Sequence record: OQ067374.1
DNA from: Escherichia phage a20
DNA: 64,000 nt
Direction: 5' to 3' (one strand)
Of this stretch, positions 4,234 to 25,880 are shown piece by piece (positions within the stretch are counted from its first letter, which is position 1; each line of letters opens with the position of its first letter). Position numbers and translations under genes: made by a program. The notes under the pieces were generated by a model. The model did not search any database. It saw nothing but the letters and a program-made list of their open reading frames with translations, and was not told where the DNA came from.

Positions 4234-4920
4234 TTAGAAGTCGTGAGTAGAATCGGCTTCCATCGCAATAACATAACTTACTTGAGAGCTTTCAAACTTG
4301 GCTGCAACTTTATCACCAGCTCCCCACAACATTACTTTATAGTTACCTGGCTGGATTTTCATATTAGCCATATTGATTACGAAGTTAAAGTTGTTAGAAC
4401 CATCATAATCGGTAAGAGTCAAAGAATACTTAGGACGAGTTAGTCCAGAATCTTCAACTTTATTATAGCCGTTGATAACAATTTTACCATCTTTATTTGT
4501 AATAGCAATTGTATCAATCTGAAGACCACGTGAAACTCGAAGCAATTGTTGAAGGTCTTCGGCTTTAATTTCAGTAATCACAGAAGCCACTGGGAATTGA
4601 ATTGGCTTATTAGGAAAAACAATGGTGCTCTTGTCAGCGGCAGGCCAATAAACTGTGGAACGTGTGTCTGCAATTTTAATATTGCCATCAGTGTGCATTG
4701 AAATTTCAGCATCATCAGACACTAGACTCAAAATGCTTAAGAAGCTATTCAAATCATAAAGTGCTACGTCAAAATCAATTTCATCGGAGATATTTGCTTC
4801 CGCATAAGTGGTGCCATTAACTGCACGAGTCATAATAAATTTACCTTGACTCAGCAGAATGCCGGAGTTAATAGAGGCAAAGTTTTTCAGAATAGCGATA
4901 GTATCTTTAGACAGTTTCAT
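4234..4920 (-). CDS. 45: Sliding clamp gp45
   Basis: MKLSKDTIAILKNFASINSGILL...EADSTHDF matches T4 gp45; start at internal ATG 4920 (228 aa). Confidence 0.92.
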   Translation of the reverse strand: MKLSKDTIAILKNFASINSGILLSQGKFIMTRAVNGTTYAEANISDEIDFDVALYDLNSFLSILSLVSDDAEISMHTDGNIKIADTRSTVYWPAADKSTIVFPNKPIQFPVASVITEIKAEDLQQLLRVSRGLQIDTIAITNKDGKIVINGYNKVEDSGLTRPKYSLTLTDYDGSNNFNFVINMANMKIQPGNYKVMLWGAGDKVAAKFESSQVSYVIAMEADSTHDF

Positions 4921-4962
4921 TTTATTTCCTTTCAAGACAATTCAAAGTTTATAACAAATTTA

Positions 4963-5379
4963 TTATGCAGCAACCATCTGCTTTTTAATAGCTTCAGGCA
5001 GTGATTCAATATATTCTGGAATTTTAGAAGCAACAATTTCGCCAGCTGCAATTAGTTGTTCGTCGGCATCAACACAATAGAAATCTTCCAGACGCTCAGA
5101 ACCGTCTTTATCAAGAACGATTTTTCCGCCAGCTTCAATAGAATCTTTATAGTGCTTACGCATCAGATGAATCCACATATCAGATACATCGTTATCAATA
5201 AAACCATAAATCATAAAACGAGTTTCTTGTGGCAAAGATTGGAGTTTTTTAGCACTTGCGTCATCACAATGCAGGACCCATGCTTTACGAACACGATTAT
5301 GGTTATGTGGGTTAGCGTCAGTACGGATAGAAGTAACTTTCAGATCAGCAGCAGTGAAACCTTTAGCAGTAGTAAACAT
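4963..5379 (-). CDS. rpbA: RNA polymerase binding protein RpbA-like (by position and size)
   Basis: 138-aa ORF directly downstream of gene 45 as in T4; sequence not independently recognised. Confidence 0.5.
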   Translation of the reverse strand: MFTTAKGFTAADLKVTSIRTDANPHNHNRVRKAWVLHCDDASAKKLQSLPQETRFMIYGFIDNDVSDMWIHLMRKHYKDSIEAGGKIVLDKDGSERLEDFYCVDADEQLIAAGEIVASKIPEYIESLPEAIKKQMVAA

Positions 5380-5391
5380 ATTATTTCTCTC

Positions 5392-5583
5392 TTATTCGTA
5401 GAAGTCGGTAACTGTCCATGCGGAATTGCGATTAGACATTATTTTATTATACTCATCTTTAAAAGCAGATTTGAGCATTTGTTCAGTAACAATATGTTCT
5501 TCACCTGAAAACGTATTGGTCAAAACATATCTTTTAATTTCAGGGACAACGAGAAGATGTTGTCCGGTTGAATACTCCGCCAT
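5392..5583 (-). CDS. Hypothetical protein (45.2-like)
   Basis: 63-aa ORF in T4 45.2 position. Confidence 0.55.
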   Translation of the reverse strand: MAEYSTGQHLLVVPEIKRYVLTNTFSGEEHIVTEQMLKSAFKDEYNKIMSNRNSAWTVTDFYE

Positions 5584-5607
5584 TATAAATCTCCGTGATT
5601 AAAGCAA

Positions 5608-5615
5608 TATAAATA
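5608..5615 (+). promoter_or_regulatory. T4 late-promoter-like TATAAATA box upstream of HNH gene
   Basis: Exact TATAAATA 45 nt upstream of ATG 5661; SD AAGGA precedes the ATG. Confidence 0.4.
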
Positions 5616-5660
5616 GGTTTATCAATTTATCTGTTGCTGTATCAAATAAGGATTTAGTAA

Positions 5661-6377
5661 ATGAATTATAACTCAATATACGAAAAGCTTATCACCAATG
5701 CTAAATCAAGAAGTTTAGATGGTTATACAGAACGTCATCACATTATACCACAATGTTTAGGTGGAAGTGATGATGCTTTAAACTTAGTAGACTTAACACC
5801 GGAAGAACATTATTTGGCACATCAACTGTTGGTAAAAATCCATCCAGATAATGCCTCTTTAATATATGCCGCTCGTATGATGACCATATCATCTCCTAAA
5901 GCAGATAGAAGCAAAAACAAATTATTTGGATGGCTTCGACGTAAGAATCAAGAAGTTCAAAAGAATAAAGAATTCACTGCTGAAACCCGTAAGAAAATGT
6001 CCGAGTCTGCAAAAAATAAACCAAAGATTACCTGTCCACATTGTGGTTTAACTGGAACTGAAGGAAACATGCGACGTTGGCATTTTGATAATTGTAAACA
6101 AGGTCCAACGCCTAAAATAGTAAAACTTGATCAAGAAACAAAAGATAAAATAATTAAAACCATGGCCACGAAAATTTGGAAAGAAGATTCTTGCCCGTTT
6201 TGTGGCTTAACTACTAAGTTATCGGCGTTAAAGCCACATATAAAATTCTGTAAATCAAATCCTAACAGAAAGAAAAAAGAGGACAAGAAAATTAAATGTC
6301 CTCATTGCGATAAAATAGGGATCCCTGCTAATATGCATCGTTGGCATTTCGATAATTGTAAATATAAGCCTCATTAA
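5661..6377 (+). CDS. HNH homing endonuclease with three C-terminal zinc-finger-like repeats
   Basis: N-terminal HHIIPQCLGGSDDALNLVDLTPEEHYLAH (HNH motif); repeats CPHCG..RRWHFDNCK, CPFCG..HIKFCK, CPHCD..HRWHFDNCK. Confidence 0.85.
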   Translation: MNYNSIYEKLITNAKSRSLDGYTERHHIIPQCLGGSDDALNLVDLTPEEHYLAHQLLVKIHPDNASLIYAARMMTISSPKADRSKNKLFGWLRRKNQEVQKNKEFTAETRKKMSESAKNKPKITCPHCGLTGTEGNMRRWHFDNCKQGPTPKIVKLDQETKDKIIKTMATKIWKEDSCPFCGLTTKLSALKPHIKFCKSNPNRKKKEDKKIKCPHCDKIGIPANMHRWHFDNCKYKPH

Positions 6378-8062
6378 GAGGCTTTCATTACAGTAAATCG
6401 TCCAACTTTGCTCATTTGAAGATGTTGTCCATAAGCTTGTGGGTCATGGTCTCTGTGACTAATTATAAACACGTTTGCATCGGTTAGAGAGTTAAGAATT
6501 GTTGAAATAGCTTTAATACCTTCAGAATCAGTCGCGGAATCCATGACTTCGTCCATAATTAATGTATTGATTCTAACGCCAGAGACCTTTTCAGCGATAT
6601 CTCGCCATGTAAACAACAATGCGATATCGATACGTGCCTTTTCACCTTGACTAAACGAAGCATAACTGAATTCTTCACGTCCACGTGATTTTATAGATTC
6701 ATTGAATTCTTCGTCAATAGAAAACACATAATCAGCTTCCATGATTTTAAGATAATGGTTAATCTGCTTGTTGAACAGAGGCACATATTTTTTAATGATA
6801 GCACCTTTAATACCAGAATCTTTTAACATATCTGTGATAATACCGCGATGGTATTTTTCAAGAACGATATCCGATTTTGTTTTAATGATTTTATCAAGTT
6901 CTTTTTGAAGCAAAGCTATCTCATCGGCATGGTCGATAAATTCCGCCGAGGCTTGTTCTATTGCAGCTTTAACTTTCTTAGCTTTATCAATAGTGGCAAT
7001 CATTGCTTGTTTCTTGGTACGAATATCAGATGCAAGGTCCTGTTTAGTCTTAACATTAGCTCTATATTCGTCCACTAGGACACTCAGATTATCTCTGTGA
7101 CATGTAAGTTGCTCGAATGAGTGATTACATTCGTGAAGCTTATCGGTAATCTTAGAGACAATAGGATCACCCTGGTGCAACTGTGATGCACAAGTAGGAC
7201 ATGTACCGCCATCATGATACATCTTAATAACTTTGTTATATGAGTCAATTTTAGATTTAATCAAGAATGCTTCTTGTCCTATCTTGTTGAATGCCTCAGT
7301 AGGGTCTTCGTCAAGAACGATATTAAGTAGACGCTCGTTAGCTTCTTCGATTTCTGCTTTTAATGAACGAGCTTCTTTGGCTAGGTCGTCATACATATTC
7401 TGTAGACGCGCTACATTATCACCAGATAATTTCTTTTGGCGTTCGATATTCTCGTTATAAATCTTAATTTGTTGGATAACACCATCTTTCTTGGCATCGA
7501 GAACTTGTCCCTGGGAATTAAGTTCTCGAACTTGAGACTTATTGATTTTATCCATTTCAGCGAGTGTGCCGACTTCTAAAAGGTCTTCGACAAGTTTTCT
7601 ACGAGCAGGGGTGCTAAGAGCCATGAAAGGGGTATACCCTGCCGTCCCAAGCACAACGATTTGTTTAAAAGACGCGTATGACATTCCGATGCTACGTTCA
7701 AATTCTTCTTGGAAGTCACGACTGCTGGCAGATTCATCAAGACGAACACCGTCAACGGAGATTTCGAAAATATTGGGCTTTTGGCCACGTCTAATGAAGT
7801 ATTTTTTATCATCGAATTCCATCCAAAGCTCAACTAAGAGCTCTTTCTTGTTCGTGCTATTAATGATTTGTCCTTTCTTAACATCACGAAATGGTTTACC
7901 GAAAAGTCCGAAAGTAATGGCTTCTAACATCGTAGATTTACCACCGCCATTTTTACCAGTGATTAATGTCTTTTGGACTTTATCTAATTGGATATCAATA
8001 GGATTCCCACCTACCGACATGATGTTTTGATAACGAACACGATTTAATTTAAATGATTTCAT
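6374..8062 (-). CDS. 46: Recombination endonuclease subunit gp46 (Rad50/SbcC-like)
   Basis: 562 aa, Walker A GKNGGGKSTMLEAI, coiled-coil middle, zinc hook CPTC, T4 gp46-like. Confidence 0.92.
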   Translation of the reverse strand: MKSFKLNRVRYQNIMSVGGNPIDIQLDKVQKTLITGKNGGGKSTMLEAITFGLFGKPFRDVKKGQIINSTNKKELLVELWMEFDDKKYFIRRGQKPNIFEISVDGVRLDESASSRDFQEEFERSIGMSYASFKQIVVLGTAGYTPFMALSTPARRKLVEDLLEVGTLAEMDKINKSQVRELNSQGQVLDAKKDGVIQQIKIYNENIERQKKLSGDNVARLQNMYDDLAKEARSLKAEIEEANERLLNIVLDEDPTEAFNKIGQEAFLIKSKIDSYNKVIKMYHDGGTCPTCASQLHQGDPIVSKITDKLHECNHSFEQLTCHRDNLSVLVDEYRANVKTKQDLASDIRTKKQAMIATIDKAKKVKAAIEQASAEFIDHADEIALLQKELDKIIKTKSDIVLEKYHRGIITDMLKDSGIKGAIIKKYVPLFNKQINHYLKIMEADYVFSIDEEFNESIKSRGREEFSYASFSQGEKARIDIALLFTWRDIAEKVSGVRINTLIMDEVMDSATDSEGIKAISTILNSLTDANVFIISHRDHDPQAYGQHLQMSKVGRFTVMKAS

Positions 8063-8313
8063 ATGTATTCTCTTCGAATGAAGTCCTCTACATATTTTAA
8101 CATGTCATCCCTATCAGCAAAATATTCATCTAGTTCTGCATACATAACAACACCTGGTGCGTACTCACAGGTAACATACATTGTTCCAAAGAAACGAGGA
8201 GTTGATTCCTCGTAATTCTCAGTCCATTCAACGATACCAATATAACCGTCACCAATACTAAATTCATGACGATGGATTTCATAATCAGTCTTCGTCATTA
8301 TACGCATCCTCAA
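8059..8313 (-). CDS. Hypothetical protein (46.1 position)
   Basis: 84-aa ORF overlapping gene 46 start by 4 nt. Confidence 0.6.
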   Translation of the reverse strand: MRMRIMTKTDYEIHRHEFSIGDGYIGIVEWTENYEESTPRFFGTMYVTCEYAPGVVMYAELDEYFADRDDMLKYVEDFIRREYI

Positions 8314-8542
8314 TACACGCTTCAGCCATTTTAAGAATAGAGCCAGGAGTATCGTTGTCCATTATATTAAAGCTAAATTCAATAGCCCAGTCGGTGCAGA
8401 CATGAACTGCTTTAACTTCATTGCCTTCAACGCGTAATGGCTCAATCCAATACTTGATAGTGTTCTCGAATCCATCATCATCTTTAACGTCCATTTCAAC
8501 TTCAAGCCTGAGTCCAGCATTGTTAAATTCATCTAAAGTCAT
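8285..8542 (-). CDS. Hypothetical protein (46.2 position)
   Basis: 85-aa acidic ORF between 47 and 46. Confidence 0.6.
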   Translation of the reverse strand: MTLDEFNNAGLRLEVEMDVKDDDGFENTIKYWIEPLRVEGNEVKAVHVCTDWAIEFSFNIMDNDTPGSILKMAEACIEDAYNDED

Positions 8543-24127: not shown

Positions 24128-25114
24128 TTATTTATAGTAAGAATTATGATTTTCGAGATAGACTTGCTCAAGGAAATCATCCCAGAAACTCATATCTACT
24201 TTTTGTTGCATACCGTTCTTAGCGGCTTGTTCCGATGCTTGTTCAACTTGGTCAACGATATCTTCTAGGAATTCTTGTACAGTTTTAAACGTATGTTTAC
24301 CAAGCTTAACATCGAGAATAAATGGAGCATCCTGAAGTGGGTAAACTAAGTCGCCGGTTTTGTAAATTTCCAATAGTTGAAGTCCACCACGACATGCATG
24401 ACTCAATGCTTTCCAGTCAATACCTTCGTTGGCTTCCGCCTTACGAGCACGTTCACCGTAGTTCTCTTCCAGTTTAACCAGGATGGCATTGAACTCTTTA
24501 TTGGTTAACGTATCTTGGAATTTACGGTCTAACAGATTATAGAATGTTTGCTTACCTGTTTTCTCGTTTTCGGTTTCAACCCACGAAGCAAATTCACCTA
24601 TAGGCAGAACATTCTTCATATGTGATAAACGAATTACTGCACCATTATCAAAGTATTGTCCCCATTCATTAGAACGTTTAAGGGCTTGACGAAGAACAGC
24701 CAGTCGAGAACCCTTGACACCGTATTTAGAAGCTTGCTTACGGACATACCCTAAATAAGATTTCATGTTAGTGGTATAGAAACGAGACCTGTTATCTTGA
24801 ATATACTTCCATACATCAGGCAAATCAGATTTAACTACTAGACTTTGTGGAGTGTGAAGCATATCTAATGCGACGGTTTCACCATCTGCAGCTAGTTTAA
24901 AGAAATATTTGAGACTATATAACTCATGGTCTACGTCGTCTTTTGTGTTCTTAGAAGATGTGTTATTCGTGTTCTTGCTCATGTGTTCTTTAACGTTACC
25001 GGTCAAGATATCACGAGCATGAGGGACATAAATTTCTTTAAAATCAACGTCAGATTCAGGGGTAGACGTTCCATAAAGGTGGCTACCAAAGTAAGCCTTA
25101 ACAATCGTTTTCAT
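24128..25114 (-). CDS. Pol-beta-superfamily nucleotidyltransferase-like protein
   Basis: N-terminal FGSHLYGTSTPESDVDF fits the hG[GS]...D.[DE] NTase motif; 328 aa. Confidence 0.6.
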   Translation of the reverse strand: MKTIVKAYFGSHLYGTSTPESDVDFKEIYVPHARDILTGNVKEHMSKNTNNTSSKNTKDDVDHELYSLKYFFKLAADGETVALDMLHTPQSLVVKSDLPDVWKYIQDNRSRFYTTNMKSYLGYVRKQASKYGVKGSRLAVLRQALKRSNEWGQYFDNGAVIRLSHMKNVLPIGEFASWVETENEKTGKQTFYNLLDRKFQDTLTNKEFNAILVKLEENYGERARKAEANEGIDWKALSHACRGGLQLLEIYKTGDLVYPLQDAPFILDVKLGKHTFKTVQEFLEDIVDQVEQASEQAAKNGMQQKVDMSFWDDFLEQVYLENHNSYYK

Positions 25115-25880
25115 TATTCACTTTCCTTTCATAATCTTCAATGAACTGTAATATTAAGCGTTGGTAATTTGATTTAGGATAACCCATTTTACTAATATGG
25201 GTTCCGAAAGCCCCACGCTTAGGTCGATTCAATTTAATCCAAAGTTCGTAAAGCATATCATAATCTTCCCAGTGTTTACCAGTTCGTTGTCTAGCTTTAG
25301 ACGCTTCAGACTGTCTCTTTTTAGTTTCTGGATTATCTAGGGCCTTTTTAACAGCTCTTGAATGCCGTTCTTTAACATCATCTCTCTTAAAGGCCTCTTT
25401 GATAGCAGTAGATATTTTTGCTTTAACTTCAGGTCTATTCTGTGCCTCTATTTGAGAATCTGACATTTTAGCCTTTATCTCAGGGAGGCTCATGGTCGCT
25501 GAACGCTTATCACGATATTCTTGTGATTCCCATATATCTTTCATTCTATTAGAGTGAATTTCTGAAAACTTTTCCCTTACGTCTTTATAGCCTCTTGAGG
25601 TTAATTTAAGATTTCGTCCTAAAGCATCTTCGCCTAAATTATAGAACGCCCAGTAAGCGTAAATCAATCCTTCAGAGTTTGGGTGAATTTTTGATAATAA
25701 CCAATGAGCGATAAAATGTTCCCTGGCAGTCAATAAAACTTTATTACTCGGGTCATCACTCCCTCCAATACATGAAGGGATTATGTGATGGGATTCAGTA
25801 TAATAATTCAACTCAGACTTATCACTGCCTCTAAGTTTTCCTCGTTGAATTATTGCATCATAACATTTGATATAATTCAT
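25098..25880 (-). CDS. HNH homing endonuclease (MobD-like by position)
   Basis: SHHIIPSCIGGSDDPSNKVLLTAREHFIAH HNH motif; paralog of ORF 5661-6377; Lys/Arg-rich C-terminus. Confidence 0.8.
   Translation of the reverse strand: MNYIKCYDAIIQRGKLRGSDKSELNYYTESHHIIPSCIGGSDDPSNKVLLTAREHFIAHWLLSKIHPNSEGLIYAYWAFYNLGEDALGRNLKLTSRGYKDVREKFSEIHSNRMKDIWESQEYRDKRSATMSLPEIKAKMSDSQIEAQNRPEVKAKISTAIKEAFKRDDVKERHSRAVKKALDNPETKKRQSEASKARQRTGKHWEDYDMLYELWIKLNRPKRGAFGTHISKMGYPKSNYQRLILQFIEDYERKVNNENDC

Follow-up and report, generated by a model that had tools for sequence, protein, structure and literature searches.

The gene that separates 45.2 from 46 in Escherichia phage a20 in all likelihood encodes a free-standing MobE-like homing endonuclease of the T4 Mob HNH family, carried on a cassette that a minority of Straboviridae genomes have at the 45.2-46 junction. 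The DNA analysed (the window) is a 64,000-nucleotide stretch of this RB69-like, T4-type phage of the genus Mosigvirus (OQ067374.1). Window positions 4900-7000 show a 100% match to phages BEU50 and NRG-P0074, and the flanks match RB69 at 98.6%. Genes 44, 45, rpbA, 45.2 and 46 surround the locus on the minus strand; the endonuclease ORF lies on the plus strand between 45.2 and gene 46, both of which are complete ORFs (Table 1). An earlier, sequence-only reading of the window had picked out this opposite-strand gene as an HNH homing endonuclease, an assignment now supported by a match to PHROG 655 'homing endonuclease' (E=6e-67) and by homology to T4 MobE (BLASTP 3e-33, 34% identity, full length). 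The same reading described a convergent 4-nt overlap with the gene 46 stop, and the coordinates agree: the endonuclease ORF ends with TAA at 6375-6377, and gene 46 has its stop on the complement of 6374-6376. It had also described the gene as the only one on the plus strand in the first 45 kb. This holds as well, as no other plus-strand ORF in that interval has a PHROG match, and the NRG-P0074 annotation of the equivalent 45 kb contains one other opposite-strand call, a 42-aa hypothetical. The identical gene of NRG-P0074 is already annotated 'homing endonuclease', as is the gene in F2. An intron-encoded endonuclease was rejected because no Rfam family is found in window positions 4900-8200 at E<=0.1 and the gene lies between two complete ORFs.

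Table 1. Features of the 45.2-46 locus in the window.
Feature	Position	Strand	Basis or remark
Gene 45.2	5392..5583	-	Pfam Gp45_2, 9e-29
Allele-specific cassette, 806 bp	5579..6384		Alignment with RB69; replaces 67 bp of the empty allele
TATAAATA, resembling a T4-type late promoter	5608..5615	+	45 nt 5' of the ATG; putative function
Shine-Dalgarno-like AAGGA	5648..5652	+	8 nt before the ATG; read from the sequence
Homing endonuclease ORF, 238 aa plus stop, ATG start	5661..6377	+	ORF listing
HNH (His-Me finger) nuclease domain, residues 1-100	5661..5960	+	H26, H27, N41, H50, H54
NUMOD3-like helix, residues 105-120 (FTAETRKKMSESAKNK)	5973..6020	+	Alignment to T4 MobE
Finger 1, C125-x2-C128-x12-H141-x3-C145	6033..6095	+	Model: beta-hairpin and helix at 122-144
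Finger 2, C178-x2-C181-x11-H193-x3-C197, then KSNPNR linker	6192..6251	+	Homologous to I-TevIII finger 1
Finger 3, C213-x2-C216-x12-H229-x3-C233	6297..6359	+	Homologous to I-TevIII finger 2 and to the single T4 MobE finger
7-bp hairpin AAGCCTC-ATTAA-GAGGCTT across both convergent stop codons	6366..6384		RNA fold
Gene 46, Rad50/SbcC-like recombination nuclease subunit	6374..8062	-	Pfam AAA_23 and SMC_N

The N-terminal domain carries the HNH motif E24-R-H26-H27-I-I-P...N41...H50...H54, whose H26, H27, N41, H50 and H54 are invariant across 34 homologs. H26, H27, N41 and H50 correspond to H26, H27, N39 and H48 of I-TevIII, and alanine mutants of these I-TevIII residues lose cleavage (PMC1865063). 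In an AlphaFold2 model made from a 34-sequence alignment (mean pLDDT 88), strands 24-27 and 42-45 are followed by a helix at 47-60, the beta-beta-alpha-metal arrangement with conserved His and Asn of a His-Me finger nuclease core. The protein scores below threshold with the curated HNH profiles (best Pfam model HNH_5, 13.5 bits vs a cutoff of 27.5). An NCBIfam scan of the 238-aa protein gave nothing relevant, and the hits that Pfam and NCBIfam did return were sub-threshold, scattered zinc-ribbon noise. Its homolog T4 MobE passes PF01844 (24.6 vs 21.4 bits), and the link of the window protein to an HNH profile is therefore transitive only. Downstream of the nuclease domain, residues 105-117 align with T4 MobE 106-118, within the stretch of MobE (106-122) that Pfam scores as NUMOD3. 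Pfam NUMOD3 (PF07460) gave no match in the window protein at E<=1; it is present in many relatives.

The T4 Mob proteins combine an HNH domain with a lineage-specific C-terminal DNA-binding region and sit between conserved genes with presence/absence polymorphism. The gene product has an HNH domain homologous to those of MobA-E and a putative DNA-binding region of this kind, and its gene is intergenic and polymorphic. T4 MobE is a 232-aa protein encoded between nrdA and nrdB that passes the Pfam HNH and NUMOD3 models; it makes a strand-specific nick and homes in T4 x T2 crosses (PMC2790892). The two proteins share the N-terminal HHIIP...N...H motif, a NUMOD3 or NUMOD3-like element and a C-x2-C-x12-H-x3-C finger ending in ...RWH(F/Y)D(N/K)CK; in MobE a single finger of this type, CPHCGKKVNKGNALRWHYDKCK, forms the C-terminus. 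MobE too is intergenic and presence/absence polymorphic among T-even phages (PMC2790892). The composition of the C-terminal region differs, with about four NUMOD3 repeats and one finger in MobE, but one NUMOD3-like helix and three fingers in the window protein. Their settings differ as well: mobE is at nrdA-nrdB, on the same strand as its neighbours and with no promoter of its own, whereas the window gene is at 45.2-46, on the opposite strand and behind its own late-type box.

The three C-terminal zinc-finger-like repeats seen by the sequence-only reading, and their modular character, find support in homology between fingers 2-3 and the fingers of I-TevIII. I-TevIII, encoded in the nrdB intron of phage RB3 and present as a truncated remnant in T4, has an N-terminal H26/H27/N/H catalytic motif and two CX2CX12-13HX3C fingers in tandem, connected by a C-K-x-N-P-N-R linker. 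Fingers 2-3 of the window protein (FCKSNPNR) align with the finger pair of the T4 I-TevIII remnant at a BLASTP E value of 2e-11, including its C-K-L-N-P-N-R linker. The spacer between the second Cys and the His is x12, x11 and x12 in fingers 1 to 3, as compared with x12/13 in the I-TevIII-type finger C-x2-C-x12/13-H-x3-C. Across 27 homologs, with identities as low as 46%, neither the 12 zinc ligands nor the HNH residues vary. The model of each finger has two short strands and then a helix; the hairpin contributes the first two Cys ligands, and the helix contributes the His and the last Cys. I-TevIII requires its fingers, which bind approximately two zinc ions, for both DNA binding and dimerisation (PMC1865063); by homology, those of the window protein are probably zinc-bound and part of a DNA-binding tail. 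The 71% identity, over 75 nt, between the DNA encoding fingers 1 and 3 suggests an internal duplication.

The likeness to I-TevIII bears on how the protein might cut. I-TevIII is intron-encoded, has two fingers, and acts as a dimer that makes a double-strand break; the window gene is free-standing, and its product has three fingers. It is possible, if less than probable, that this product is also a dimer that makes double-strand breaks, with the fingers as the dimer interface, as opposed to a MobE-like monomer with single-strand nicking activity: dimerisation of I-TevIII maps to its C-terminal ~75 residues (PMC1865063), the part homologous to fingers 2-3. Over its whole length, however, the protein falls nearest to the MobE group, and the activity detected for MobE was limited to a strand-specific nick (PMC2790892); many relatives have a single finger. 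I-HmuI likewise joins an HNH domain to an extended modular DNA-binding domain and nicks one strand (PMC2790892, PMC5714182), and it is the only HNH homing endonuclease among those considered with a DNA-complex structure. It belongs, however, to the HNH_3/zf-His_Me_endon group, whereas group 1 contains the T4 Mob proteins (PMC5714182); I-HmuI also lacks CCHC fingers and is absent among the sequence and fold matches listed.

The sequence-only reading had proposed comparing the 45.2-46 junction with relatives that lack the insert, and such relatives turned out to be common. Among 166 matching Mosigvirus records, 13 contain the gene and about 150, RB69 included, are empty, matching in two pieces that skip it. 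In Tequatrovirus, the gene is present in 60 of 591 matching records; T4 has the empty allele. The junctions are exact, being base-identical in the six occupied and four empty alleles compared. The 67 bp that the cassette replaces run from the start codon and RBS of 45.2 through the 45.2-46 spacer to the final three codons and stop of gene 46. Both ends are rebuilt by the cassette, which supplies a 45.2 start and RBS (MAEYS... vs MEYS... in the empty allele) and the last three codons of gene 46 (...VMKAS* vs ...VMTVS*); both neighbouring genes are intact in either allele type. Insertion is thus possible at almost no cost to the phage.

The Mosigvirus flanks were searched for SNPs that track the presence of the cassette, as possible marks of target immunity or co-conversion; none occur in 560 bp on the left and 1000 bp on the right, and the flanks of the window are nearer to the empty RB69 and PHB12 than to the occupied F2 and ST0. 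With flanks uncoupled from presence, either the cassette has spread through different backgrounds or recombination has freely shuffled the flanks. The cassette is bracketed by an exact 13-nt direct repeat, GAAGATGTTGTCC, at 5553-5565 in 45.2 and at 6418-6430 in gene 46; on the minus strand both copies encode G-Q-H-L. The repeat was rejected as a target-site duplication, since empty alleles have both copies too, as does T4 in variant form.

The cassette-borne ORF is intact in 7 of 7 alleles examined. Synonymous and non-synonymous codon differences number 13 and 2 with F2, 19 and 1 with ST0, and 20 and 2 with ESCO47. Synonymous changes are thus in far excess, and the protein is therefore under purifying selection. 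The ESCO47 allele (L009) carries H27Y within the HNH motif; because the equivalent H27A abolishes I-TevIII cleavage (PMC1865063), this copy may be inactive and at an early stage of decay. That substitution, and the truncated I-TevIII of T4 as a precedent, would fit a decaying, inactive remnant that hitch-hikes with its flanks, but for the window gene this is highly implausible given the intact ORFs, the preserved catalytic and zinc-ligand residues and the excess of synonymous changes. Another allele, that of mar005p1 (L003), is a mosaic. Its nt 1-450 are 95-100% identical to the window and its nt 480-660, covering fingers 2-3, 43-60% identical, with the same junctions. This mosaic suggests exchange of finger modules between alleles.

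A promoter box and Shine-Dalgarno sequence of the gene's own, part of the sequence-only reading, are both present (Table 1), yet the box gains nothing from its frequency: the window contains 8 copies of TATAAATA where chance alone predicts 7.9, so there is no enrichment. It is also found 5' of the Tequatrovirus homologs, and CTAAATA stands at that place in Cronuts and L013. With a count equal to the chance expectation, the box is therefore significant only through its conserved position 5' of the gene in homologous cassettes. At the other end of the cassette, the hairpin across the two stop codons folds at -15.2 kcal/mol on the plus strand (z = -6.3) and at -14.1 kcal/mol on the minus strand (z = -4.6). 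A scan for consensus terminators did not call it. The teqhad homolog has a weaker hairpin of different sequence at the same position, and the empty alleles have their own hairpin 3' of gene 46, with an annotated terminator in SA20RB. Speculatively, the hairpin of the cassette may limit read-through between the convergent genes.

Homologs with three fingers, at the same junction and convergent with gene 46, are found in six lineages at 44-68% identity: Dhakavirus IME281 (68%), Tequatrovirus teqhad (58%), Klebsiella phage Roth77 (57%), Slopekvirus phiKp_10 (48%), Pseudotevenvirus Cronuts (45%) and a metagenome contig (44%). The lineage has therefore long been tied to the 45.2-46 junction; judged from these sequences, it is locus-specific and old. 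The recent insertion that the sequence-only reading had envisaged is thus not demonstrated. The patchy occurrence of the gene inside individual genera is consistent with cyclic gain and loss. In Tequatrovirus, the last ~190 nt of gene 46 contain 22 fixed differences between four occupied alleles (L005, L017, L018, L022) and four empty alleles (L015, L019-L021), with no fixed differences deeper in gene 46, and the gp46 C-terminus is changed. Such a tract is the pattern expected from co-conversion with a foreign donor. The Mosigvirus alleles show no such co-inherited gene 46 tract. Site-specific cutting of empty alleles and super-Mendelian inheritance would be expected of a homing gene, and the Tequatrovirus tract and the shuffled Mosigvirus flanks support them indirectly.

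Long persistence at one locus could also reflect domestication, in which the nuclease benefits the phage by excluding co-infecting relatives, or by regulating gene 46/45.2 through antisense transcription or operator binding. Strong purifying selection on the protein, a locus and convergent orientation kept across six lineages, and the hairpin across both stop codons are all compatible with this. So is the annotation of a terminator and a middle promoter in the replaced intergenic region of an empty Tequatrovirus allele, and I-TevI is known to combine homing endonuclease and repressor functions (PMC2988022). We nevertheless regard domestication as improbable: the gene is found in only ~8-12% of genomes in each of two genera, whereas a gene of benefit to the phage should have become fixed more widely; the neighbours are intact in both allele types and flank haplotypes are uncoupled from presence; and marker exclusion is an automatic by-product of homing that needs no separate function.

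As a mobile homing endonuclease of the MobE type, the gene would operate as follows. The gene's own TATAAATA box would drive late transcription, antiparallel to the early and middle transcripts of the adjacent genes. The C-terminal tail would bind an extended DNA site through, in order, the NUMOD3-like helix, finger 1, a second helix, finger 2, the NPNR linker and finger 3. In a mixed infection, the HNH domain would nick or cut the empty allele of a co-infecting phage. The target most likely lies in or across the replaced 67-bp segment, because this is the sole consistent difference between occupied and empty Mosigvirus alleles. Through recombination-dependent repair the cut genome would then acquire the cassette, at times along with neighbouring gene 46 sequence; both adjacent genes stay intact, since the arriving cassette brings a new 45.2 start and RBS and a new gene 46 3' end, as read directly in the occupied alleles. 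The locus adjoins gene 46, a recombination gene on which homing itself depends. T4-like phages are known to carry many Mob-type homing endonucleases, of which the window gene is a further example, and identical records already carry that annotation. Base-exact occupied and empty alleles in two well-studied genera make it a clean natural system, usable to map the target of a Mob-type enzyme. Literature searches turned up no account of a homing endonuclease at 45.2-46 or of multi-finger arrays of the CCHC I-TevIII type.

The sequence-only reading had considered the finger array unusual for HNH endonucleases, which the family contradicts. A search at E<=1e-3 gave 17,402 representatives at 50% identity, and 244 relatives were retrieved for finger counts. 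At least one finger is present in 211 of the 244, with a range of 0 to 8 and a single finger in many; MobE has one and I-TevIII two. Only the count of three is specific to the clade of the window protein, of which it is the hallmark; 'unusual' describes the databases and not the biology. The spacing is 12/3 in 281 of 329 fingers from the retrieved relatives. Four metagenomic proteins (P0230, P0031, P0123 and P0092) have tandem arrays of five to eight CCHC fingers with NPNR-type linkers. The eight-finger P0230 reaches the cutoff of the Pfam GIY-YIG model; in P0031 and P0123 the N-terminus looks GIY-YIG-like, as judged by eye only, and P0092 is an HNH protein. The I-TevIII finger is thus a widespread, repeatable module of one to eight copies on both HNH and GIY-YIG nucleases, lacking a Pfam model or solved structure. 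No Pfam model covers the CCHC finger, the nearest being ZNF512_C2HC, at threshold for one relative. The profile search on the C-terminal repeat, also proposed by that reading, was carried out with a 50-finger profile against the PDB and found no solved structure, its best match being a TFIIIA finger at E 0.085; phmmer with the whole protein against PDB sequences gave nothing significant. The top Foldseek matches, all weak, were CTCF finger arrays, and a Rad18 UBZ finger matched at TM 0.80 over 31 residues; none of these was significant.

Membership of the classical C2H2 family (PF00096) was rejected, since the fourth ligand is Cys and Pfam zf-C2H2 gives E=0.3. The module nonetheless resembles classical TFIIIA-type C2H2 arrays and engineered zinc-finger nucleases in its C-x2-C-x12-H-x3- spacing and predicted beta-beta-alpha topology, and the latter also in the fusion of tandem fingers to a nuclease. 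It departs from the TFIIIA type in having Cys rather than His as the fourth ligand and linkers of 15-32 residues in place of TGEKP. The helix M-x-R-W-H-F-D-N-C-K is conserved in the CCHC finger, unlike in eukaryotic arrays. In the alignment of 50 fingers, variability peaks (entropy >3 bits) at the four positions that precede the conserved Met and at one that follows it. By register these correspond to canonical helix positions -2 to +2 and +4, at the beginning of the canonical recognition helix; the helices of the model start there too. That C-P-H-C-G-K-x-G-x4-M-x-R-W-H-F-D-N-C-K-x-N-P is a true TFIIIA-like finger, with which HNH and GIY-YIG nucleases of phages read DNA in repeated units, is a tentative idea that we hold to be less likely than not. 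If true, these proteins would be natural zinc-finger nucleases, with targets changeable through finger number or finger swaps, such as the apparent exchange of fingers 2-3 in mar005p1.

The window contains a second Mob-type HNH endonuclease gene at 25098..25880 on the minus strand (260 aa; PHROG 655, 1.2e-54). Its product shares 53% identity with the 5661 gene product across 70 aa, confined to the HNH domain; it has no CCHC finger, and the gene is on the strand of its neighbours. A further PHROG-655 gene is present in NRG-P0074 (L016:36091-36942), at the other end of gene 46, equivalent to window position ~8062. The window does not carry this gene and has only 46.1/46.2-like ORFs there (8059..8542). 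As the arrangement in NRG-P0074 shows, gene 46 can therefore have homing endonuclease genes on both sides.
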